Positions 11,892 to 45,554 of a stretch of DNA of 47,860 bases are shown piece by piece. The position numbers and the translations under genes were made by a program. Numbering within the stretch: the stretch's first letter is position 1; each line of letters starts with the position of its first letter. This DNA comes from an uncultured Enterobacterales bacterium (GTDB lineage: Bacteria > Myxococcota_A > UBA796). The notes under the pieces are model-generated. The model was not told where the DNA came from and made no database searches. It worked only from the letters and a program-made list of their open reading frames with translations. The stretch covers positions 1 through 47,860 of the forward strand of contig CAZKOI010000001.1 of NCBI GenBank assembly GCA_964554315.1. The letters are read 5' to 3'.

Positions 11892-13837
11892 GCGTGGTGT
11901 TGTCCAATGGCGGTCAGCAGGGCCTCGGCGCCTATCACATGCAGGTCGAGCCTCAACGCCCACACATCCGCATCGGGCGGAAGCCGGGCGGCGTCCTTCT
12001 CAGTCACGATCGTGCCTGGCTTGAGGGGGCCCAGCTCACCATGATCTCGAACCACCCGGAGGGACCGTATGGTGAGTCCGAGGTCGAGCAGTGTGCCTAC
12101 GAAGCGCTCGGGAAATGCAATTCCAACGGCCACATCGACCTCGCCGGAGACGGCACAGAGGTCGAGGAGTTGGCCTCGGTGAAGCCAACCTGTCGGTCGA
12201 AGCTGGCTTCGGACCAGAGGACGGCCTGGGGGCAGCGTGGGCTCGGGAACCTCCGCGGACCAGTTCGATAGCCAGAGCGCATCGACGTGATCGAGCTCGG
12301 ACCAGGGCAAGCGCTGCGTCCCCACCGGGATGGGCCCGCCGCCCGTGGGGCGAACCGTGTCGATGACGCCGATTCTAAAGGCCCGACGGAGTCGAGGATC
12401 ACTCAGTCCACCGTCGATGATGGTGGTCTGGTCCGGCGGACGGGCGGCGAGCGCTGCAGTCCTGTCGGGAGCCGACACCACCGCGAGGCCGCGTCGATGA
12501 AGCATCTCGAGTTCGTCGCCGAGCTTTACGCCAGGTCCAGGGTGCCTCTCTTCTCGGCCGCGACCCTGGCGTCGGTAGCCCGCGCTCAAGATGACGCTTC
12601 CCTCAAGGTGCTCAGCGAGCCAAGCCGCGACAGGCGTTCGACCCGCACCGCCGGCGACGACACCCCCAACCAGGACGCACGGACGGGGCAGATCGACGGG
12701 GCGTCGCAGGCTCCGATGAAGCGCGGATAGTCCACGCCACACGGGCGTGAGCACGCTCAGCCAGGGGCGGTGGGGTCGCTCAGGCAGGTGGACGCCGGCA
12801 GGCACACGAGCCAACCAGTGGAGGGGGGGCTCCTTGATGGGTCGGGGAGACATTCGGGGGCGGTCTTGAAGCTGGCGGATGGTTCGGCCGAGCTCGGCGG
12901 CATTTTGCACGATGTGGACCTCGACGGCCGTCCATGCTTGAGGAGAGGCGCTGCGATGAGGGCCGGCAACGATGTGGCACCCCCACATTGAAGCCATGCT
13001 GGGGTCGTGTCCTCCGATCTGCGGGTCGAACGTTCCGCCGATGATGGCGGTGTGGGCCTCTGGCAGCAGGCCGTCAAGCTCCCCCATGGTGTCCAGGACC
13101 AAGACTCCGCTCGCGCGATCCTCGGCAAGCTGCGTTCGACGCTGCGGCGAGAAGGTGCACCACGCTGAGATGAGCGATTCGACATCGTCGAGGTGCCGAG
13201 GTGCGAGGATGAGCGTGGGCCGGGGTTCGGGGAGTGTTGCCCACGCCGCCCGCAAGAGGCGCTCATCCTCCGTTCGTAGGCTCGCGGCGATCACCGTCCC
13301 CTCGGGTAGGTGGAGCGTAGGCTGAGGCGTGGGAGCAAAGTGCTTCAGCGGTCCCGTCTCCTCCGAATCTATCCAAACCACCTCGGCCATGAGGCGGGTG
13401 AAGACAGGCTTCAAACGCTGCCAACGCTGCCAGCCTCGACCTCGTCTCCCGCCAACCACACACACGGGAATTCCGCGAGCTCTCGCTGCCAAGATCCAAC
13501 CGGGCCAGAGCTCGGCCTCCACCAGAATTAAGCGGCTGGGTCGCGCCCGGTCGAGCCACGGGCCAATCACGAAGGGGAGGTCGAGAGGGGCCGGGAATGC
13601 GCCGCGCACCTCGGTTCGCCAGGAGCCGGCGGTTCGCCACACGGGGCCGAGGTGGGGGGCAATGGCCTCAATGATGCGGTGCTCACCCAAGCTCGCGCCG
13701 TGGATCCATGTCCGGCCAGGAACGGGTACGGGCACCCGCAGCATGTGTCGACGTGCGCTGGGATGCAGCAGGAGGACGGGCCATGCCGCGAGTCCGACCA
13801 AGCGCCACAGCAGCAAGAGGCCGTCGATAAACATCAC
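11888..13837 (-). CDS. Fusion protein: Kdo transferase WaaA (N-terminal ~325 aa) plus tetraacyldisaccharide 4'-kinase LpxK (C-terminal ~300 aa)
   Basis: The N-terminal half has WaaA blocks (IHGASLGE, VEAELWPG, LAPRHLDD, LDTMGEL, IGGTF..GGHDP). The C-terminal half has LpxK blocks (P-loop VGGVVAGGAGRTP, IIDGGLSD, PVGTQRLPWSEL). It is a single uninterrupted 649-aa ORF. Confidence 0.8.
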   Translation of the reverse strand: MMFIDGLLLLWRLVGLAAWPVLLLHPSARRHMLRVPVPVPGRTWIHGASLGEHRIIEAIAPHLGPVWRTAGSWRTEVRGAFPAPLDLPFVIGPWLDRARPSRLILVEAELWPGWILAARARGIPVCVVGGRRGRGWQRWQRLKPVFTRLMAEVVWIDSEETGPLKHFAPTPQPTLHLPEGTVIAASLRTEDERLLRAAWATLPEPRPTLILAPRHLDDVESLISAWCTFSPQRRTQLAEDRASGVLVLDTMGELDGLLPEAHTAIIGGTFDPQIGGHDPSMASMWGCHIVAGPHRSASPQAWTAVEVHIVQNAAELGRTIRQLQDRPRMSPRPIKEPPLHWLARVPAGVHLPERPHRPWLSVLTPVWRGLSALHRSLRRPVDLPRPCVLVGGVVAGGAGRTPVAAWLAEHLEGSVILSAGYRRQGRGREERHPGPGVKLGDELEMLHRRGLAVVSAPDRTAALAARPPDQTTIIDGGLSDPRLRRAFRIGVIDTVRPTGGGPIPVGTQRLPWSELDHVDALWLSNWSAEVPEPTLPPGRPLVRSQLRPTGWLHRGQLLDLCAVSGEVDVAVGIAFPERFVGTLLDLGLTIRSLRVVRDHGELGPLKPGTIVTEKDAARLPPDADVWALRLDLHVIGAEALLTAIGQHHA

Positions 13838-21641: not shown

Positions 21642-22388
21642 TCAGTATCTCATATGGCGCAAGATTTGTGTGTAGTCGTGTGTGACATCTGCGCTCGGAC
21701 AGTGCTCCCGCAAGAGGGCTTGCTTAGCCAAGGCGGCTTGATTGTCGGCCCAGGCATTTCGAATCCGGCAGATGACCTGAAGTCCAATGGCTTGTTCGAC
21801 GGCAGCAGGACTGACGCCGCTGTCGGGGTGGGCACGGTTAATGATTCCCATGGCCACTTGGCCGTCCACGTTCAACGAGGCGAGGACGTCGAGTCGCCGC
21901 TTGGCACCGATAAGCGCCGGTCGCTGCTCCGTCGTCACCAAGAGTCGGTCATCGGCGTAGGCACAGGCGGTGAGCGAGACTTCATTGAGGTCGGTTCCAC
22001 AGTCAATGACCACAACATCAAACTGAGCACGAAGCTGGTTTAGCAGTCGAAGGACGTCCTGTGCGTCGACGGCATCGGCGTCCGCGAGATCGGGGGCCAG
22101 CCCCAGCACAGAGAAGCCGAGACGGTGGCGGGGAATAGGCGCCCGTGCGGTCACGTCCTCGGTGCTGTTCATCCAGGTCATGACGGTGGGTTCGCGCTCC
22201 AGACCCACATGCAGGCCAACGTCGCCCAGAAACAGGTTGAGATCCAGCAACAAAACGGAGCGTGTCTTCGAATTGGCGAGTTCAGCCGCGAGGTTTGCGG
22301 CGACGGTTGTGGTACCGACGCCTCCCTTGGCGCCCAGAATAGCGATGGCTCGTCCATTGTTCGACATAGGGGTCCTCAGTAACGGCAC
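21642..22388 (-). CDS. ParA/MinD-superfamily ATPase (CpaE/TadZ-like ATPase domain only)
   Basis: Deviant Walker A ILGAKGGVGTTTVAANLA and Walker B-like VVVIDCG. There is no receiver or other N-terminal domain. An alternative ATG lies at 22367. Confidence 0.75.
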   Translation of the reverse strand: MPLLRTPMSNNGRAIAILGAKGGVGTTTVAANLAAELANSKTRSVLLLDLNLFLGDVGLHVGLEREPTVMTWMNSTEDVTARAPIPRHRLGFSVLGLAPDLADADAVDAQDVLRLLNQLRAQFDVVVIDCGTDLNEVSLTACAYADDRLLVTTEQRPALIGAKRRLDVLASLNVDGQVAMGIINRAHPDSGVSPAAVEQAIGLQVICRIRNAWADNQAALAKQALLREHCPSADVTHDYTQILRHMRY

Positions 22389-23680
22389 GCGGCGATGATG
22401 TGCTCAGGTGAAGGGTTGGTGTTCCACGCGTCGAGGATGTCGTCTGCGGGAGAACGCCCCGCCTCGATGCGCTCGAGGAGCGGCTCGATCTTATCAAGGT
22501 CCAGAGGAAGGCAAGCCTTGAGGCCCCGCTCGGCAATGTCGCCCAGGTCGGAGGCCCAGTCCGCGAGCGTGCGACGGCCGACACGTGCCTCGAGACCCGA
22601 GCGGGCTGCGGCGGTGAATCGCTCGGTGTGAGAGCCACACTTCTCGAGCTCCCGGACCAACTCAAGGCCCTCATCGAGCGCGATGTTGCAGTAAAGCATG
22701 CCTGTGAAGAGCGCGCAGAAGGCCAGCGCCATATCGTGACCGACACAGTCGGCGCCGCGGATCTCGATGGTTCGCTTGATGCGCACCTCGGGGAACACGG
22801 ATGTCTGGTGAAGAGCCCAGTCTTCCTTAGTCGGAAAGTGGCCGTCGATGCCGTGGTCAAGGAAGGTCCTAAACGATGTGCCGTGGGCGGCGACCCACTC
22901 CCCGTCCTGAATCCGGAACATCATCGGCGAGTCGAGAAGGTAGTTCACCCAACGCTCGAAGCTGAAGTCGCTTCGAAGCCCCGGAGGAAAGCCGGTTCGA
23001 TCAGGGTCTGTTCGGGTCCAGATGTGGCCGCGATACGACTTAAAGCCCGTTGGCTTGTTCTCGAGGAGGGGTGAGTTGGCAAACAACGCGGTGGTCAGAG
23101 GTGCGAGGCCTGCTGCGAGGCGCACCTTTCGGGCACAGTCCGCCTCCGAAGAGAAGTCGTAATTGGCCTGAACACTGCACGTGCCCTTCATCATGTGCGC
23201 GGCCAGGTCGCCCCGCTGGGGCAGATAGCGCTTCATGATCCCGTAGCGAGCCTTGGGCACCCAAGGGATGGCGGCAATGGGGGTGACCGGAGTCACGCCA
23301 GCGGCGATCCAGACATGATCTCGGCCCTCTGAGATGTCCAGCAGCGCTCGGCGATTGGCCATCATTTCTTCGGCGAGCGCGGAGAGCGAGGCGTGAGGGG
23401 CTCCGCTGAGCTCAACCTGCCCACCGGGCTCGAGTGTAATGTTGGCCATGTCCTCGCGATGAAGCGCGATGATGTTGTTCCCCTCCCGGTGGGGGCGCCA
23501 GGAGGTGTCCAGAGCGAGCTGGTCCAGAATCCAACCGATGCCGTCGGGCTCGAAGTAGCCTATTGGGCGGCCGTCACGTCGGACCACTGCACGTTCAAAT
23601 TCGCCGCCGACCAGCCACTTCTCTCGCGGCGTGCAGTAAGTGTGAAAGGACTCGATGAGGTCTGATGCTTTCAGCCGCAT
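22376..23680 (-). CDS. gshA: Glutamate--cysteine ligase, plant/alphaproteobacterial type (GCS2 family)
   Basis: KWLVGGEFERAVV and ITLEPGGQVELSGAP blocks match plant-type GSH1. ATG at 23680 was chosen (MRLKASDL...); the ORF extends to 23806. Confidence 0.82.
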   Translation of the reverse strand: MRLKASDLIESFHTYCTPREKWLVGGEFERAVVRRDGRPIGYFEPDGIGWILDQLALDTSWRPHREGNNIIALHREDMANITLEPGGQVELSGAPHASLSALAEEMMANRRALLDISEGRDHVWIAAGVTPVTPIAAIPWVPKARYGIMKRYLPQRGDLAAHMMKGTCSVQANYDFSSEADCARKVRLAAGLAPLTTALFANSPLLENKPTGFKSYRGHIWTRTDPDRTGFPPGLRSDFSFERWVNYLLDSPMMFRIQDGEWVAAHGTSFRTFLDHGIDGHFPTKEDWALHQTSVFPEVRIKRTIEIRGADCVGHDMALAFCALFTGMLYCNIALDEGLELVRELEKCGSHTERFTAAARSGLEARVGRRTLADWASDLGDIAERGLKACLPLDLDKIEPLLERIEAGRSPADDILDAWNTNPSPEHIIAACRY

Positions 23681-23738
23681 GACGGTTCTCTTGGGAAGGT
23701 GTACGTGAGAATGGGTATGATGCCTCAGGAGGTCAAGC

Positions 23739-24308
23739 ATGCGAATTTTTCTCTTCGTCCTCAGCGCAGGATGCACGCCGCACCTGGAGAGCGAGCCTCG
23801 AGCCACCTGTGGTGGTGAGGAGCTGGAGAACAGCTGGGAGAAGTCTGCTCCACCCGTCGCACTTGAGGGCGAGGGATTCTCGCGAGGTTCGGTCGTGCCC
23901 GACTTCTGCCTCGAGGATCAAAACGGAGACAGGACCTCCCTCTGGCAGTTCTACGGCGACGTGATTTTGTTGGACATCTCCACCATGTGGTGCGGCCCCT
24001 GCCAGCAGATCGCGAAGGACGTGGAGGAGACTTGGCACGACTATTCGGAGGAAGGCTTCACCTACATCACCGTTCTTCCCGAGGACCTCGAAGGAGGCCA
24101 GGTCGATCGCGCTGACCTCCAAGAGTGGTCTGAAGAGTTCGGAATTACGGCGCCCATTCTCGCGGACAACGAGGGCTTTGGCTACAGCGTTGAGCCTGAG
24201 CGGGCTTGGCCCGTCGTGATGTTGATCGATCGCAAGATGTCGGTGCTCGTCGAGAGGATTGCGCCCAACGACCACGCCATTCGAGAGGCGATCGAAGCCG
24301 CGCTCTGA
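23739..24308 (+). CDS. Thioredoxin-fold thiol:disulfide oxidoreductase lipoprotein (TlpA/redoxin-like), Cys form
   Basis: Lipobox MRIFLFVLSAGC and redox motif WCGPC in a redoxin-like context (VVPDFCLEDQNGDR...VILLDISTMWCGPCQ). Confidence 0.85.
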   Translation: MRIFLFVLSAGCTPHLESEPRATCGGEELENSWEKSAPPVALEGEGFSRGSVVPDFCLEDQNGDRTSLWQFYGDVILLDISTMWCGPCQQIAKDVEETWHDYSEEGFTYITVLPEDLEGGQVDRADLQEWSEEFGITAPILADNEGFGYSVEPERAWPVVMLIDRKMSVLVERIAPNDHAIREAIEAAL

Positions 24309-38928: not shown

Positions 38929-39462
38929 CTCGCGCTCAACGTTCGCCATCTGCGCTCTGCAAGGCAGTTGAGTCAAGCCCAGCTCGCCGAAATAGCTGGC
39001 ATTCCTCGACCGACATTGGCCAACCTGGAGTCCGGGAAGGCCAACCCCACTTTGTCTGTGCTGATGCGCTTGGCGAGCGCTCTTCAGGTGCTGATTGAGG
39101 AGCTCGTGGCCCCGCCGCGGGCGTCCGCAACACACCATGGTGCAGACGATCTCCCCCTGCGTCAGCGGGGGCCTGTTTCCATCGTGAAGGTTCTGCCTGA
39201 CGCTATGCGTGGGCTTGACATAGAGCGGATACAGGTTCCCGCTGGCCATCTCTTTTCCGCGATTCCTCACGCGCGAGGAACCCGGGCCTACCTCAGCGGT
39301 CAGCGGGGCAGAGTTGAGGTGAATGTGGGAGGCGAGGTCCATGTCTTGGAGGAGGGTGATGTGGTGGTCTTCCGAGGTGACCAGCGCCACAGCATTGAGA
39401 ATCGTGAGGCGGCAGAGGCGGTTGTGCTCAGAGTGGTCACCCTCGCGCCGGTGCCGGAGTGA
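38905..39462 (+). CDS. XRE-family HTH transcriptional regulator with C-terminal cupin domain
   Basis: HTH_3 block LRSARQLSQAQLAEIAGIPRPTLANLESGKANPTLSVLMRLASAL and a cupin-like C-terminal half (GEVHVLEEGDVVVFRGDQRHSIEN). The GTG start lies inside the AT-rich tract. Confidence 0.85.
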   Translation: MIDIVSTNLALNVRHLRSARQLSQAQLAEIAGIPRPTLANLESGKANPTLSVLMRLASALQVLIEELVAPPRASATHHGADDLPLRQRGPVSIVKVLPDAMRGLDIERIQVPAGHLFSAIPHARGTRAYLSGQRGRVEVNVGGEVHVLEEGDVVVFRGDQRHSIENREAAEAVVLRVVTLAPVPE

Positions 39463-39519
39463 AAGAACGTCGCGCTCCAGAGACGGAGGGGGTAGAATGG
39501 GCGCTCAACGGGAGCCTAG

Positions 39520-40362
39520 ATGCGCGGCCTCATTTCTTTGATTCTGATCGCATGCGGTGATGTGAAGGACGCCGCCGAGGATACCGAGGCCGTGCTTGCG
39601 TCGGATGCCGATGCGGACGCGGACGCTGATTCCGACGCTGATTCCGACGCTGATTCCGATACCGATGCTGACGCTGACGCTGACGCTGACGCTGATGCCG
39701 ATGCCGACGCCGATGCCGACGCCGATGCGGACGCGGACGCCGATGCCGATGCCGACGCGGACGCCGATGCCGACGCGGACGCCGATGCGGACGCCGACGC
39801 GGACGCCGATGCCGACGCGGACGCCGATGCCGATGCCGATGGCGACACACCCCTGCGGGAGTACATCGGCGGATACCCCGTCAATCCCTGTGAGAGTACG
39901 CCCTCTCCGACGGGCTACGGCGTGGGCCAGATCGTGCCTGACTTCGCCCTGGTCGATCAGCACGGCGAGGAGGTCCGGCTCTCTGACTTCTGTGGGTCAG
40001 TGGTCCTCCTCGAGACAGCGGCCTTCTGGTGAGGCTCCTGCGCGGCAAGCGCACCGGGTCTGGATGACCTGTACGACACCTACCGAGACCGTGGCTTTGT
40101 GGTCATGTCACTCATGATCGAGAACTGGGCCGGGGGTATTCCCTCGGTCAGTGAGCTCGGCTCCTGGGCCTCGTCCTACGGAATGTCGTCTCCCGTCTTG
40201 GCCGATGCCGGGATGGGCGTGACCTCCCAGTTCATCTGGGCGGACGGGGTGACGTCATTCGCACTTCCGTCCAAGCACCTCATCGGGCCCGGGATGGAGG
40301 TCTTGGCCATCAATGAGGCGCACATCCCAGCCTCGCTCATCGAGGCTCATCTGCCCGATTAG
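39520..40362 (+). CDS. Thioredoxin-fold (TlpA/redoxin-like) lipoprotein with (Asp-Ala)n linker and in-frame TGA at the CxxC position. Candidate selenoprotein; alternatively a nonsense pseudogene.
   Basis: ORFs 39520-40032 and 40099-40362 are in the same frame and separated only by TGA 40030-40032. Read-through gives ...[10 protein letters not shown]-[TGA]-GSCAAS..., a W-U-G-S-C redox motif. From VPDF to the motif it aligns without gaps to the WCGPC of the paralog at 23739-24308. Lipobox LILIAC. Confidence 0.55.
39604..39846 (+). repeat. Imperfect hexanucleotide tandem repeat (GAY-GCN)n encoding ~81 aa of Asp-Ala/Asp-Ser dipeptides
   Basis: Codons 29-109 of the gene read [26 protein letters not shown]...DADGD. 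Synonymous variation (gat/gac, gcc/gcg/gct) breaks the perfect DNA identity. Confidence 0.95.
40030..40071 (+). other. In-frame UGA plus downstream candidate SECIS-like hairpins
   Basis: Hairpin A (40036-40058): stem TGCGC/GCGCA with loop GGCAA, extendable by 3 bp across a CC bulge. Hairpin B (40055-40071): CGGGTC/GACCTG (one G-U pair) with loop TGGAT, starting 28 nt after the UGA. The two are mutually exclusive and were paired by eye only. Confidence 0.35.
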
Positions 40363-40406
40363 CCCCCCAGCCATGCCACCAACGACGTGCCGCTGCGCGG
40401 TCTGCG

Positions 40407-41294
40407 TCACTCCTCTCTCGGCCGAGCCCGGATACCATTGTAGTAGTCATCGGCGTACGTCTCACCGGGGGTGCACGTGCTCGAGTACTCCTCAAAGCAC
40501 CGGACCTCCATGTTGAAGTAGAGGGTCCGCTCTGTCGCCCCGAGATCGCAGTCCCACTCCCCGGGGGTGGCTTTCTGGCTCCAATTGAGCGACGACGGGT
40601 TGGGATTTGGGCTCAGCAGGCGGCAGCGAGGAGAGTCGTCCACCTGCTCTCCTCCGGGCACCACCGAGAACCACCCGTGCCAATAGAGCCCGCTGGCATG
40701 CAGACCGGGCATGTTGTTGGTGATCTCGGCCGTACCGGAGCGCCCAATCGCATTGGCGGTGAAGGGCAGGGAGAGAATCTTGCCGCTCGGAATTCGGAGA
40801 TCATTCGTCCAATAGCTGGCCCCCAGCGACCAATTGTCGAGGTGAATCTCCGGGTCACAGACCACCCGCTCGGCGACCTCCGCGGGCACACCGCTGCAGT
40901 ACGCTGCGGGCTCCGGTATGGCCTCTTCGAAGACGGCAATGACCGAGCAGTCCTGCGTCACCGGTGCCGTCCTGAACTGAAGCCCCTCCACACTGCCGCC
41001 GCACGTGCCCGTGACAGCTGCCAATCCCCACCCCTCGTCGGGCGTCACATCAACCCGAAGCACCCGCCCGTCATTGACCCTCACATCGCCGACCGGCGTG
41101 GCGAACCCGCCACCGCTCACGGACGTCGATACCGTGTGCCAGACCGCGTCCTCTCCGGTGTCAGTCGACTGCGGGGCTCCGGTGTCGAGCGAGGTTGGTT
41201 TATCCGAGCCGCTGTCGCTGGACGCCGCTTTATCGCTCTGGCATCCCGTCATGAGACCCAGACATAGGGTGATCATAGAGGTCTTAAACGGCAT
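40407..41294 (-). CDS. Lipoprotein with divergent InlB B-repeat-like domain and Cys-rich C-terminal domain of unknown function
   Basis: An ATG at 41294 is preceded by GGAGAG, with lipobox LGLMTGC and an S/D/T-rich linker. The B-repeat-like segment is VSGGGFATPVGDVRVNDGRVLRVDVTPDEGWGLAAVTGTCGG...VIAVF. The mature part has 8 further Cys. Confidence 0.65.
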   Translation of the reverse strand: MPFKTSMITLCLGLMTGCQSDKAASSDSGSDKPTSLDTGAPQSTDTGEDAVWHTVSTSVSGGGFATPVGDVRVNDGRVLRVDVTPDEGWGLAAVTGTCGGSVEGLQFRTAPVTQDCSVIAVFEEAIPEPAAYCSGVPAEVAERVVCDPEIHLDNWSLGASYWTNDLRIPSGKILSLPFTANAIGRSGTAEITNNMPGLHASGLYWHGWFSVVPGGEQVDDSPRCRLLSPNPNPSSLNWSQKATPGEWDCDLGATERTLYFNMEVRCFEEYSSTCTPGETYADDYYNGIRARPREE

Positions 41295-41484
41295 GAGGAT
41301 CGTCTCTCCTGGGTCCAACTATTGGCGGCGATAAGCGCGGGTGGTCGTCGCTCCGTACCGGTGGAGCGGGACGCTCTCAGAAGGTATTCCCGGTTCGGAA
41401 GCTGACAACGGTGCAGTCGTCTAAGGCGCGTGCGGCCGAGGTTCGCTCTCGTGACCGGCTGCTTCATCGCCCCGTCACGCCCGT

Positions 41485-42243
41485 CTATGCTGGTTGTCGA
41501 AGGACCCCTACCGTGACATCCAGCGTCCCATCGGGAAACATCTCGATGGCATCCGGATAGCCCTCCAGGCCGTGCCGTCTCAAGGCACTCATGCACCGAT
41601 GCCATGAGTCTGGGGCGCCGAAGTGAAGCGCGATCGCGCGAGCCAGCTCGGTCGTTCCAGACCATCGCGCCTCGGAGACCCAGACCACGCTAGCGACCGA
41701 GCCGCGGCACCACCTCACGCCCCAGATGCCGGCTGCCCCGTGGTCGACCAGCGTCGCGACCTGCTCCGCGAGCGTGCCGCGAAGGTAGTGAAAGGGCGCG
41801 GACTGGTGTCGAGTGATCACGCTCCGTGCCCCCACCGGTACGGTGGCGATGAGACACATCAAGTCACCCGCGAATTCAGGGGGACGCAGCGCCTCGACAG
41901 CCGCAATGGCGCGGTGGTCCTGGAGGTCGTCGAGGTAGATCTCCGCGCCGTCCGACCCGTCGGTGTCTATCATGCGGCGCATGCCTGGAATCGATAGCGC
42001 GAGTAGATCACGCGTCTGGGCGCACGGCCACTGGCTCTGGACCGCCGTCGCCCAGGCCTCCGGCTCCCCTTGGTCGCTGACCGCCACACGGGGCGGGCGG
42101 TCCGTTACTCCAAAGGCCAGAATCGGGCCCACCTTGAAGTCTTCTATCAAGGGATCCGCGACTTCAGGTCGGATGAGCCGGGCTATCCTCGACGGTACCC
42201 CCGCTGGAAAGACAGCATCGAGCATCGCTTGGGTCGAGCTCAC
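41485..42243 (-). CDS. Hypothetical protein, translationally coupled to the radical SAM genes
   Basis: A 252-aa ORF whose start overlaps the stop of the upstream radical SAM gene by 4 nt. No signal peptide, TM helix or catalytic motif recognised. Confidence 0.6.
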   Translation of the reverse strand: MSSTQAMLDAVFPAGVPSRIARLIRPEVADPLIEDFKVGPILAFGVTDRPPRVAVSDQGEPEAWATAVQSQWPCAQTRDLLALSIPGMRRMIDTDGSDGAEIYLDDLQDHRAIAAVEALRPPEFAGDLMCLIATVPVGARSVITRHQSAPFHYLRGTLAEQVATLVDHGAAGIWGVRWCRGSVASVVWVSEARWSGTTELARAIALHFGAPDSWHRCMSALRRHGLEGYPDAIEMFPDGTLDVTVGVLRQPA

Positions 42244-43304
42244 GGCCAGCCCAGCTCTCGTCGCAGGGCCAAGATGGCCAGATCAATCGCGGCACCGAAG
42301 CGACAGTTTTCCTCAATGATCTGTCGCTCCTCGCTTCCCTCCGGATAGCTGCCGACCATCACATCATACAGCTCAGAGAGCGACCACCTCAGCGGGTCAA
42401 AGTGCACCGTTTCGCTGAGATGACCCCGCCAGTATGTCTCCTTGAGGCGAGGAAAGCGCCGCTCCAGGAAGATGGCTCCGTCATGGTAGATGCGACCGTC
42501 TACATCCACGATGAGATCATCGGACAGCATGACGGGCTCGCAGTCGCTCTTCCAATTGAACAACACCATCTCTTCAGCGTGAGCATGGTGATGGCGGAGT
42601 ACACGAAGAAGCGAGCCGATGTAGGCATCCATCTGCTCTTGGCTCCAGCGCATCCCCACCGCATAGTTAAGCTGAAGGCGTCGAACACCGGTCTCCAGGG
42701 CCCACTGATATCGCTCCATGCACGCGTCAGCGGCAGCAGGCGGCAGCACGGCATTCATGAACCACGGCACTCGGTGACCCTGCAGCAGCTTGATGGCGCG
42801 AGTCACGCCAGCATAGGCCTCCTCGTCAGAGCACAGGTGCGCCTGACGAAACCGGCGGTGAGCGAGCGCCGGGCCGTCGAGAGAGAACATGAGCATCACA
42901 GGATGCTCGGCCAAGAAGTCAAGCTGAGCCTCCGTGAGGCCCACACCGTTGGTGGTGAGGCAGATCTCGAGCTTTCGTCCTTCTCGCTCAGGGTGTGCGG
43001 ACACATAGCGAACCGCGTCCTCGAGCACCGACCAGCAGCGGGTCGGCTCGCCGCCAAAGAACTGAAGCTCAAGCCTGGGTCGGCTGGACTTCATCAACAG
43101 GTCGATGGCCCGTCGTGCATCCGACGACGCCAGCTCCGCCGCGCCCTCCATCTTGTCCACCAGACAGTAGCCGCAGCGGAGCTCACATGAGCGCGTCAAC
43201 ATGAGCATCAAGCGCTCAACGCCAGGTCCTTCTCCGAGGTTTACGCTGCCTCGGCGGAGGATCTGGCCGAGGCGCTTCTGTGCCTGATCGGGGGTCGGTA
43301 TCAC
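42240..43304 (-). CDS. Radical SAM protein (anSME/SPASM-family-like core without a C-terminal Cys cluster)
   Basis: CxxxCxxC motif in LMLTRSCELRCGYCLV and a GGEP block (LQFFGGEPT). The C-terminal region has the SPASM-like VDVDGRIYHDG but lacks the auxiliary-cluster cysteines. Confidence 0.85.
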   Translation of the reverse strand: MIPTPDQAQKRLGQILRRGSVNLGEGPGVERLMLMLTRSCELRCGYCLVDKMEGAAELASSDARRAIDLLMKSSRPRLELQFFGGEPTRCWSVLEDAVRYVSAHPEREGRKLEICLTTNGVGLTEAQLDFLAEHPVMLMFSLDGPALAHRRFRQAHLCSDEEAYAGVTRAIKLLQGHRVPWFMNAVLPPAAADACMERYQWALETGVRRLQLNYAVGMRWSQEQMDAYIGSLLRVLRHHHAHAEEMVLFNWKSDCEPVMLSDDLIVDVDGRIYHDGAIFLERRFPRLKETYWRGHLSETVHFDPLRWSLSELYDVMVGSYPEGSEERQIIEENCRFGAAIDLAILALRRELGWP

Positions 43305-44611
43305 GCGCGAAGCTCCACCGGTGGACGAGGCACGGGTGTCGACTCGGTCGGTTCAGGACCTCGAATCATCCGGAGCGCTTGGTGAACCTTGTCCAAGTCC
43401 GACTGGGTACAGTGAGTAAGACGAATCATCGCCTCGCCTGCCCCAAAGGGCTGATCAACATAGCGCTCGATCAGCAGATCATTCGCCTCGCAGAGTTGGT
43501 ACAACCTCGTCCATCGCTCGGGGGTGTAGTACTTCCAGCTCAGCTCACCCGCCCCGACCTCTCGCGCCATGCGGACCGTCGCGGCCAGGTGTTGGGGAGT
43601 CTCGAAGGGAAGGCCCATGATGAAGCTCGCATGAACCGTGATGCCTGAATCCTCGAGACGCCTGACCGCCTCGAGCGCCGCGGCGTTGGTAAAGGGCTTG
43701 TCCAAGAAGCGACGCCGATAGGCCTCATCGCCGCACTCCAGCCCGAGAACAGCATAGTCACAGCCCGCGCGCGCGAGATCGGCCACCAGCGTCTCCGTGA
43801 CCTGCTCCACCCGCAGCTGCACGGCGAGAGGCTGACCCACCTCGGATGCATAGGCCGAGCAAAATGAAGAGACCCATCGGCGGTCGAGCGGGAAGATGGC
43901 ATCCCAAGTAGCGAAGCCATGCTCCACCGAGACGGTCTGCATCGTTCGTTGCATCTCTGAGATGGTGCGATCGACGGAGCGAAGGGTCATGGATCCAGCG
44001 GTGGGTTGACCATGAAGTCGGCGGTAGCCATCAATGCCGCAGAAGGTGCAGGTAAAGGGACAGAAGCCACGAGATATTGCGACCCCCACCGCTTGCTCAT
44101 AGCGATTGCCCGCGTTGGTGAGATCCCCAAAGAGTCCTCGATCCCAGTCCGGCAGTCCGTCGACGTCGGCCACGCGGGGTCGCTGCACCGGATCGGCGGA
44201 CCCGCGCCGTAGGATGCCCGGGTGAGGAATGTCCGGCCGCTCGATCCACCCCAACAGCCCCGGCTCTCCCTCGCCAGCACAGACAGCGTCGACATCCAGC
44301 TGGGCGAGTGTCTCCGTCGGGTAGGTCGTGGGGTGTGCACCGCCGGCGATGACGCGTGCGTCCGGCAGTGCCGCGCGCAGAGCGGGCAGGACTTCCGCCA
44401 CCCGCTCAAAGCGACAGGTCATGAAGCTCAACCCCACCACCTCCGCAGCGCTCTGCTGGGCGGCCTGCTGGATCTCAGCGCAGGTCGCCTCGTCCTGAAT
44501 GGTCAGCAACTCGACGCTGTGGCCCGCCTCCTTGAGCCAGGCCGAGAGAGCGGCTATCGAGCTGTTGAACTGCACCCCTGCCTGGGCGGTATGGACGAAG
44601 AGGACATTCAT
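43301..44611 (-). CDS. B12-binding-domain radical SAM protein (class B-like)
   Basis: N-terminal cobalamin-binding-like Rossmann domain (MNVLFVHTAQ...VVGLSFMT...VIAGGAHPT), followed by ISRGFCPFTCTFCGI (CxxxCxxC). Confidence 0.85.
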   Translation of the reverse strand: MNVLFVHTAQAGVQFNSSIAALSAWLKEAGHSVELLTIQDEATCAEIQQAAQQSAAEVVGLSFMTCRFERVAEVLPALRAALPDARVIAGGAHPTTYPTETLAQLDVDAVCAGEGEPGLLGWIERPDIPHPGILRRGSADPVQRPRVADVDGLPDWDRGLFGDLTNAGNRYEQAVGVAISRGFCPFTCTFCGIDGYRRLHGQPTAGSMTLRSVDRTISEMQRTMQTVSVEHGFATWDAIFPLDRRWVSSFCSAYASEVGQPLAVQLRVEQVTETLVADLARAGCDYAVLGLECGDEAYRRRFLDKPFTNAAALEAVRRLEDSGITVHASFIMGLPFETPQHLAATVRMAREVGAGELSWKYYTPERWTRLYQLCEANDLLIERYVDQPFGAGEAMIRLTHCTQSDLDKVHQALRMIRGPEPTESTPVPRPPVELRA

Positions 44612-44636
44612 GGGTCAGAGCGTGTAGGGTAGCAGA

Positions 44637-45554
44637 GTGAACCAAGCAGACCACGAGGATCGTAGCATCGCGCGCCTGATGACGGCGTCGATCGCAGAGC
44701 AAGCCGAGACGATGGCGAGCTGGGGGATGGACCGGGTCGGCCTCTTGATTCTCATGAGCCCCTGTCACGGTCGGTGCATCTTCTGCGCCCAGCCCGCAGT
44801 CACTCACCCTCCGCCCGAGGACTGGACCCCTTGGACACAGGTCTCCCGCTACCTGGAGGGCAACCGTGCCGCCGCGCTGCGGGGCCTCTGCATCGGCGGA
44901 ACCGAGCCCACCAGTCATCCGGACTTCGCGCGCACCCTCGAGCTGGCCGGCGACGTAGGCTTCGAGCACATCGAGCTGATGACCTCAGGCCTGACCCTCA
45001 GCGAGCCGAACGTGGCCGAGGACTGGGTGGCCTCCGGCATACGCAGTGTCGCCGTGCCCATCTACGGACATGAGGCCCTTCATCACAACCGTGTGGTCGG
45101 GGTCCCTGCCTTTGACCGGCTCGTGGCGGGCCTGGATGCTGCTCGCCGTGCCGGAATCACCGTCCACGCTCACACCCTGGCGCTGGCGGAGACGCTCCCT
45201 ATTCTCGGGGATCTCGCCGAGTTCGTGACCTCGCGTTGGGGAACGCCGCTGACCCTCGCGCCCGCTCGACCGAAAGACGCTGTCTGGGACTACCGGGGGA
45301 GAGCCCCCAGCCTCGTGGACATCAGCCGCCACATCGACGGCGTGCCCGAGGCTCATCTCCAGCTGACGGGATGGCCTTCCTGCCTGACCCCCTCACGACG
45401 CCGCGGTGCCGCGACAGTGATGAGGCTGTATTTCCTGGGGCAATCTCGAAGCTTTCACCCATCCTGCAGCAACTGTCAGGCTCAGCCGTCGTGTCCCGGC
45501 GTTGTCAGCACGCTCCTTGAGCGCGATGGAGCCCGCGGCCTCACCCCCGCCTAG
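44637..45554 (+). CDS. Radical SAM protein with partial SPASM/twitch-like C-terminal Cys motif
   Basis: CxxxCxxC in LILMSPCHGRCIFCAQ and a GGTEPT block. The C-terminal CSNCQAQPSCPG gives CxxCxxxxxC. Start uncertain: GTG 44637, or ATG at 44679, 44712 or 44727. Confidence 0.8.
   Translation: MNQADHEDRSIARLMTASIAEQAETMASWGMDRVGLLILMSPCHGRCIFCAQPAVTHPPPEDWTPWTQVSRYLEGNRAAALRGLCIGGTEPTSHPDFARTLELAGDVGFEHIELMTSGLTLSEPNVAEDWVASGIRSVAVPIYGHEALHHNRVVGVPAFDRLVAGLDAARRAGITVHAHTLALAETLPILGDLAEFVTSRWGTPLTLAPARPKDAVWDYRGRAPSLVDISRHIDGVPEAHLQLTGWPSCLTPSRRRGAATVMRLYFLGQSRSFHPSCSNCQAQPSCPGVVSTLLERDGARGLTPA

Follow-up and report, generated by a model that had tools for sequence, protein, structure and literature searches.

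The locus and its in-frame TGA

The stretch of DNA described here, 47,860 nucleotides of contig CAZKOI010000001.1 (the window), carries on its forward strand a locus, 39520-40362, that appears as two open reading frames (ORFs), 39520-40032 and 40099-40362, and that we propose to be a single gene for a lipid-anchored selenoprotein with a thioredoxin fold. Both ORFs share one frame, and the TGA at 40030-40032 is the sole stop between the ATG at 39520 and the TAG at 40360-40362, as the sequence and its translation confirm for what an earlier note on this DNA had claimed. Read through this TGA, the product has 280 amino acids (...LLETAAFW immediately precedes the TGA). Translation of frame 1 over 39300-40560 places an in-frame TAG at 39517-39519, so that the ATG at 39520 is the earliest possible start. 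The features to which we refer, all on the forward strand, are the following.

39510-39514, forward: Shine-Dalgarno-like GGGAG, read from the sequence and putatively functional, 5 nt before the ATG
39520-40362, forward: proposed complete selenoprotein coding sequence (CDS), 280 codons including selenocysteine (Sec) 171, stop TAG at 40360-40362
39520-39555, forward: candidate signal peptidase II-type lipoprotein signal peptide, recognised by eye, with lipobox L-I-A-C; codon of the putatively lipidated Cys12 at 39553-39555
39604-39845, forward: acidic tether of low complexity, (DA)n with occasional DS/DT, about 39 GAYGCN hexamers (Tandem Repeats Finder)
39847-40359, forward: ResA/TlpA-like thioredoxin-fold domain with active site W-U-G-S-C, from Pfam, NCBIfam, PDB and the model of an orthologue
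40030-40032, forward: in-frame TGA, predicted Sec171, attacking residue of the UxxC motif; TGA in orthologues, TGY (Cys) in relatives
40039-40041, forward: TGC, codon of the resolving residue Cys174 (UxxC motif), whose column (C65) is the same throughout alignments A1 and A3
40039-40053, forward: hairpin 1, UGCGC-GGCAA-GCGCA, possible accessory or spacer element with the weaker support (82% of cells paired in Sec forms)
40055-40071, forward: hairpin 2, predicted core of the selenocysteine insertion sequence (SECIS), 6-bp stem CGGGUC/GACCUG (40055-40060/40066-40071) and loop UGGAU (40061-40065)
23739-24308, forward: Cys paralogue, a TlpA/ResA-like lipoprotein with WCGPC (32% identity, E 4e-25)

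Alignment of the read-through protein with this paralogue runs without gaps from VPDF to ...LAD, and the TGA coincides with the first Cys of CxxC, which substantiates the earlier note on both counts. Its further claim, that neither half-ORF encodes a complete thioredoxin fold, agrees with a Pfam match that spans the TGA and with the model of the orthologue P0008, both described below. Elsewhere in the window TGA ends ordinary genes with complete Pfam domains, such as YaaA and asparaginase, and as many complete-domain genes stop in this way an alternative genetic code, in which UGA would specify Trp or Gly, is ruled out. When both strands of the window were scanned for a TGA flanked on either side by 40 or more open codons and accompanied by a bacterial SECIS-type hairpin, this site and one other match were returned. 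The other, at 12782 on the minus strand (7-bp stem, loop CGUGU, 36-nt spacing), lies out of frame in the KdtA/LpxK gene and was judged to be a chance match. An exact-protein look-up gave no identical record for the 170-residue product of the N-terminal ORF.

Conservation of the TGA and of a downstream hairpin

Relatives were sought among called proteins (labelled P) and in DNA loci or contigs (labelled L, 14 of which were added by a metagenome scan), and both outcomes for which the earlier note had asked to look, orthologues with Cys and orthologues with TGA in this column, were found. The protein search gave 16 full-length relatives (P0001-P0016, 41-47% identity) with W-C-G-x-C and TGY at the Sec codon, as also seen in L005 and L020-L025. 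It further gave three proteins (P0017, P0018 and P0021; 68-81% identity over the covered part), deposited as fragments of 141-151 amino acids, that end exactly at ...AYW or ...TFW. In the contigs of these truncated proteins the break reads TGG-TGA and the frame goes on, reaching in L001 the ...IEAHLPD end before the stop that the window's frame has too; the gene calls of L001 are split in two (193-639 and 718-969).

The identical TGA codon is present in L001-L004 and L006-L018, across contig GC contents of 0.38-0.65 and protein identities to the window of 41-100%; within this set all of L008-L018 carry it, at identities from 77% down to 41% and contig GC contents of 0.38-0.64. Counted as distinct diverged orthologues, at least 12 keep the TGA (41-81% identity, GC 0.38-0.65), and the additional disabling mutations that the earlier note had named as the mark of a decaying gene occur in none of them. 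Every orthologue with a long enough contig has an open frame of about 104-117 codons past the TGA, with a conserved C-terminus. Comparison of the window with six orthologues over the part after the TGA gives a ratio of nonsynonymous to synonymous substitution rates (dN/dS) of 0.18-0.35, with dS about 1 or saturated, and the part downstream is therefore translated in frame and under purifying selection. A scan of genome contigs returned one match only, a Cys-form metagenome-assembled genome labelled 'uncultured proteobacterium'. One Sec form, at 2413-3975 of L012, has a 412-residue N-terminal extension without a Pfam match, for a total of 524 amino acids.

Two hairpins follow the TGA, at 40039-40053 and 40055-40071, where the earlier note had described them by their loops GGCAA and UGGAU, and RNAalifold independently predicts both. 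Covariation was measured on 12 distinct Sec-form sequences, whose alignment is free of gaps from the UGA onward. In these the two-hairpin structure has 90% of cells paired, against 71% in shuffles, and a covariation score of 0.528, against 0.187 when shuffled (reached by 0 of 500), and sliding the 3′ partners by 1-3 columns as a control leaves a covariation of at most 0.074. Helix 2 is 97% paired, and of its six pairs four have double compensatory changes, single positions showing for instance GC/UA/CG or GC/CG/AU; the inner pairs of helix 1 are often broken or register-shifted. The loop of hairpin 2, UGGAU in the window, is UGGAA in most orthologues and UGGGA or UGGAG in others, its U-G-G columns are invariant, and the spacing from the UGA to this apical loop is 28 nt in 12 of 12 sequences. 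The Leu codon that provides the UG of the loop is CUG in every one of the 12 Sec forms, contigs of about 0.4 GC included.

Rules for the bacterial SECIS (bSECIS) specify a stem of 4-16 bp, an apical loop of 3-9 nt with the pattern N1-G-[G/U]-N-N2, a distance from the UGA of 16-37 nt and a minimum free energy (MFE) of at most -7.5 kcal/mol (PMC13188914). Hairpin 2 fits the rules for stem (6 bp), loop (5 nt, N1-G-G-N-N2) and spacing (28 nt) and covaries in the Sec forms, so that the comparison with bacterial SECIS models proposed in the earlier note comes out in its favour on these points, and the hairpin at 40055-40071 is the predicted bSECIS core of the Sec171 codon. Of the two hairpins put forward there as alternatives, it is thus the second that stands; the first, weakly supported, is ruled out as the SECIS by its 11-nt spacing (range 16-37), its variable register and its broken inner pairs. 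Compared with the consensus embodied in the bSECISearch model (PMC13188914), the upper stem, the loop and the spacing are the same and the energy of hairpin 2 is about -7 to -12 kcal/mol, whereas a second, less conserved hairpin in the spacer between UGA and core, and the lack of a fitting Rfam model, are different.

Eight distinct Cys-form sequences, which encode nearly the same peptide (...EAPELEALY...), provide a matched control. Here 64% of cells are paired, which equals the shuffled value, the covariation is 0.179 against 0.190 shuffled, and no compensatory change at the hairpin positions was found among the eight; the loop Leu codon is CUC, UUG, CUU, UUA or CUG, with CUG in one of the eight. 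In a rough neighbour-joining tree the Cys forms are nested inside the Sec forms, which suggests that Sec could be the ancestral state in this subfamily. Sec forms are single copy in their contigs. Cys forms occur as tandem paralogue pairs of about 198 and then about 248 amino acids, both WCGxC lipoproteins, in L020 (2350-3747), L023 (1551-2927), L024 (369-1745) and L025; the pairs adjoin a GH16 glycosidase and, in L020, also a phosphoenolpyruvate carboxylase. On the minus strand, at 22376-23806, a GCS2-type glutamate-cysteine ligase stands head-to-head with the Cys paralogue of the window, and the two may be paired in thiol redox. As their ORFs share about 68 nt at the 5′ ends, a miscalled start in one of them is probable.

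Domain architecture, relatives and surroundings

With U replaced by C, the read-through protein matches PF00578 (AhpC-TSA; 3.1e-15, 56.7 bits, cut-off 26) and PF08534 (Redoxin; 3.9e-11, 43.4 bits, cut-off 26.6) over residues 135-261, across the TGA. The nearest PDB sequence matches are the pneumococcal Etrx surface lipoproteins (2yp6/4hqz, 5.7e-12), followed by ResA. As a stand-in for the window protein we used an AlphaFold2 model of the Cys orthologue P0008 (predicted local distance difference test, pLDDT, 84; predicted template-modelling score, pTM, 0.79), which matches ResA and thiol-disulfide oxidoreductases in Foldseek with E 1e-11 and a target-normalised template-modelling score of 0.79-0.83. 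In this model the active-site motif precedes the helix 87-103, and W61, C62 (the U position), C65 and P141 of the Pro loop are invariant in alignment A3. Scores against the NCBIfam models for ResA (NF002854, 48 bits, cut-off 170) and TlpA (NF047696, 36 bits, cut-off 230) fall far short, and the protein is therefore ResA/TlpA-like and not an orthologue of ResA or TlpA. A true peroxiredoxin with a PxxxTxxC(U) site is ruled out, as the active site is W-U-G-S-C, a UxxC of the thioredoxin type. Two further cysteines, Cys124 (39889-39891, in N-P-C) and Cys158 (39991-39993, in D-F-C-G), do not vary anywhere in the subfamily, whether the form is Sec or Cys. They may be joined in a structural disulfide, as is typical of proteins of the envelope, or serve as a second redox pair.

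Ahead of this domain the N-terminus, judged by eye, satisfies the lipobox pattern [LVI][ASTVI][GAS]C and has a positively charged N-region and a hydrophobic core, and the orthologues, both Sec and Cys forms, likewise begin with a short hydrophobic stretch that leads to ...[GAS]C (VWGGC, LAVGC, LGTSC, FTSC, LIAC, FLAC). The product is thus probably a lipid-anchored lipoprotein. Where the window has its (DA)n tether the orthologues have other acidic linkers, DTxDT, GGDDGG or EPTS. L007, otherwise 100% identical, seems to encode about eight extra linker residues, through repeat-length polymorphism or an assembly effect. The GAYGCN repeat also yields long spurious ORFs on the opposite strand or in other frames (39505-39963, 39516-39884, 39530-39850 and 39596-40117).

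Thioredoxin-fold UxxC selenoproteins, named 'Prx-like' or 'Trx-like' (peroxiredoxin- or thioredoxin-like), rank with the most abundant selenoprotein classes of the Sargasso Sea and Global Ocean Sampling (GOS) data (PMC1088965, PMC2398784), and it is under 'Prx-like' that proteins of the present type appear in the literature (PMC1088965); the GOS counts are 225 sequences for Prx-like 1 and 68 for Prx-like 3 (PMC2398784). A read listed in GOS Dataset S1 as '#Prx-like 3', JCVI_READ_1091139219293, is 36% identical to the window protein (E 1e-28). Its sequence includes ...LYDFCAQAILLVSAADWUGACHGEAPSLVGWYEKYKDRGF..., and the read shares with our family the hallmarks DFC..., W-U-G-A-C, HP[IV][VL].D and GLP...L[I].PG.E, so that the GOS work had in effect placed the family among the selenoproteins before. 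Indeed the window protein has the features by which Prx-like 3 is recognised, UxxC, PF08534 (3.9e-11) and homology to this read. It shares with the Prx-like 3 group (Zhang & Gladyshev 2008, PMC2398784) the PF00578/PF08534 fold, Sec as the first residue of UxxC, a marine metagenomic origin and many Cys homologues. Most Prx-like 3 reads, in contrast, belong to another subfamily (FATWUGGC..., with C-terminal dockerin-like extensions), and the YIGGY...C...DFC...WUGxC lipoprotein subfamily, its lipobox, acidic tether and SECIS are undescribed there. The words 'signal peptide', 'periplasm' and 'lipoprotein' are absent from PMC2398784 and PMC1088965. The lipoprotein architecture and the SECIS of the family are thus new relative to the GOS listing, and the kind of protein is already known.

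Among characterised systems, ResA, TlpA, CcmG (DsbE) and the pneumococcal Etrx1-Etrx2 have the same fold (judged from the Cys orthologue model), the same W-C-x-x-C position and a membrane-tethered or lipoprotein, envelope-facing arrangement; they differ in using Cys, whereas the window protein has a predicted Sec and two extra invariant cysteines (NPC and DFCG). The NCBIfam model NF041054, 'ResA-like WAxxUGC motif-containing protein', likewise describes proteins of ResA-like fold whose redox motif contains Sec, but the window protein scores 25.3 bits against its cut-off of 300, covers 62 of 354 profile positions and has W-U-G-S-C instead of W-A-x-x-U-G-C. Membership of this family was rejected on score and motif. 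The earlier note had called export of Sec proteins unusual in itself, which was overstated, as there are precedents. Experiments have shown that MccSep of Geobacter sulfurreducens resides in the periplasm, that its signal peptide is cleaved and that each subunit contains one Se (PMC13510729), and Sec-containing SaoX/SaoC lipoproteins of the SAO system have been predicted (bioRxiv 10.1101/2022.07.06.499078). These have in common with our locus an N-terminal signal peptide, an in-frame UGA and a downstream SECIS; they differ in fold and chemistry, being a multihaem cytochrome and an ATP-binding cassette (ABC) substrate-binding protein from anaerobes, whereas the present protein, a lipoprotein with a thioredoxin fold, is known from metagenomes of TARA and other marine samples.

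The window derives from a Gram-negative bacterium. Annotation with Pfam and NCBIfam covered about 45 window ORFs and 10 neighbours of orthologues, and window genes include those for BamA, Skp, LpxD, LpxA, LpxB, KdtA/LpxK and an MsbA-like ABC transporter, as well as a Ser/Thr kinase, GCS2, Hsp33, YaaA and a radical S-adenosylmethionine (SAM) cluster. The region 423-21221 is devoted to outer-membrane and lipid A biogenesis (BamA, Skp and LpxD, then other genes, then a lipid A acyltransferase, KdtA-LpxK, the MsbA-like exporter, LpxB and LpxA), and the KdtA-LpxK fusion ORF of 649 amino acids within it is unusual. Directly downstream of the selenoprotein locus, 41485-45554 encodes three radical-SAM proteins, of which one also has a B12-binding domain, together with proteins without Pfam matches, and may be a peptide- or lipid-modification cassette. 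The convergent neighbour at 40407-41318 (minus strand) encodes a 303-residue putative lipoprotein without a Pfam match. It has a homologue at 4161-4889 of L008, about 50-68% identical in segments and about 5 kb from the Sec gene of that contig; nothing else hints at a shared context. Genes for cytochrome maturation, Sco or Msr are absent from the vicinity.

Weighing the readings and a proposed mechanism

We propose that 39520-40362 is one gene for a 280-residue selenoprotein, in which the UGA at 40030-40032 is read as Sec and whose product would be an exported, lipid-anchored ResA/TlpA-like oxidoreductase, and we give this reading a probability of about 0.88. The lipid-anchored selenoprotein oxidoreductase of the earlier note is supported by conservation of the TGA, by Cys in its place among relatives, by covariation in a hairpin of SECIS type, by selection downstream of the TGA, by the fold and by the lipobox.

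Several observations weigh against this reading. Hairpin 2 alone folds with -7.8 kcal/mol in the window, barely under the -7.5 kcal/mol rule, with -7.2 to -11.9 in most orthologues and a weaker -3.5 in L004; with hairpin 1 included the energies are -11 to -21 kcal/mol. The fold energy of the window's sequence is no better than that of shuffled sequence (z -0.55), and as single-sequence folding matches the shuffles, the evidence for the RNA element is comparative and not thermodynamic. Rfam gave no match, either for the whole window at the gathering threshold or for 39950-40200 at E<=10. Neither the 47.9-kb window nor any retrieved locus was found to contain selA, selB, selD or tRNA-Sec, and ARAGORN reported no tRNA of any kind in the window or 15 loci. 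There is no CcdA/DsbD-type partner in the window or beside the orthologues, and the gene neighbourhood is not conserved among the orthologue loci. Finally, the signal peptide, assessed by eye, is short, with 11 residues before the Cys.

Among the alternatives, recoding of the UGA to an amino acid other than Sec survives best; the codon could be read as Cys by a tRNA(Sec)-like Cys tRNA in a SelB- and SECIS-dependent manner, as reported for some Deltaproteobacteria, or as Trp or Cys through near-cognate read-through stimulated by the hairpins. A conserved UGA with a hairpin does not reveal which amino acid is inserted, and neither selD nor selA lies in the window. However, a UGA at the catalytic Cys of CxxC together with a GG-loop bSECIS at canonical spacing is the standard Sec signature (PMC13188914, PMC1088965), the GOS work had already counted this family as a selenoprotein, and other genes of the window use TGA as a normal stop, so that we regard such recoding as very unlikely.

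It is somewhat less probable still that termination at the TGA is real, the gene producing only a 170-residue lipoprotein and perhaps a separate C-terminal fragment from the GTG at 40099. Gene callers do annotate fragments of this kind, as in P0017, P0018, P0021 and the two calls of L001, but neither fragment holds a complete thioredoxin fold. In-frame conservation extends over the 22 codons that separate the TGA from the GTG at 40099, among them those of the invariant resolving Cys and of an invariant Ala, and no conserved start or ribosome-binding site past the TGA was seen across the orthologues. Some truncated product is nonetheless expected through competition by release factor 2 (RF2), as a by-product and not as a function.

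A recent nonsense mutation in a decaying pseudogene, which the earlier note had raised, needs a single nucleotide change to turn TGC or TGT into TGA and would sit well with a window in which the Sec machinery is not seen. It is refuted by the TGA common to at least 12 diverged orthologues without further disabling mutations, by the purifying selection on the downstream frame and by a covarying hairpin specific to the TGA forms, which would not persist in a pseudogene, and we consider it exceedingly improbable. The other alternative of that note, a sequencing or assembly error at 40030-40032, had prior possibility and nothing more in its favour and is refuted to a negligible chance by L006 (Ga0181588) and L007 (Ga0181578), which represent the same population, were assembled independently from other samples, match the window at 99-100% identity and share the TGA, and yet differ at nearby synonymous sites, and by TARA and other contigs that carry the TGA too.

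For the proposed selenoprotein we suggest the following mechanism, in which Sec insertion, export, lipidation, substrate and electron donor are inferred. During translation the UGA at 40030-40032 would be decoded as Sec, with the hairpin at 40055-40071 (GG apical loop, 28 nt past the UGA) recruiting SelB-GTP-Sec-tRNA(Sec) and the hairpin at 40039-40053 possibly assisting the positioning of this core. Given its lipoprotein signal peptide (LIAC), the product would be exported unfolded through the general secretory (Sec) translocon and lipidated on Cys12, and the acidic (DA)n tether of about 95 residues would hold the domain at the envelope side of the membrane. There, in a ResA/TlpA/CcmG/Etrx-like domain, Sec171 would attack and Cys174 resolve by way of a selenenylsulfide cycle, making the protein an extracytoplasmic thiol-disulfide (or peroxide) reductase that would presumably be re-reduced by a CcdA/DsbD-type membrane electron shuttle.

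The immediate consequence is one of annotation, as gene callers split or truncate this gene and its orthologues and 39520-40362 should become one Sec-containing CDS. Our understanding of Sec decoding is unchanged, and the protein class entered the catalogues of ocean metagenomes in 2005-2008. What the locus adds is a well-documented UxxC selenoprotein with lipoprotein signal and tether, clear SECIS covariation and a matched Cys-form control, which is useful for training SECIS and selenoprotein finders. More tentatively, and with somewhat less than even confidence, we suggest that the family represents a clade of envelope-facing, lipid-anchored thioredoxin-fold selenoenzymes of marine Gram-negative bacteria, in which Sec would be ancestral and the Cys forms a derived, duplicated offshoot, in which a two-hairpin SECIS would lie in the first active-site helix with its pairing fixing the residues encoded by four codons past the CxxC, and which would serve as Se-dependent extracytoplasmic disulfide or peroxide reductases. 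The finding thereby raises the question of why envelope redox enzymes of marine bacteria adopt selenium.

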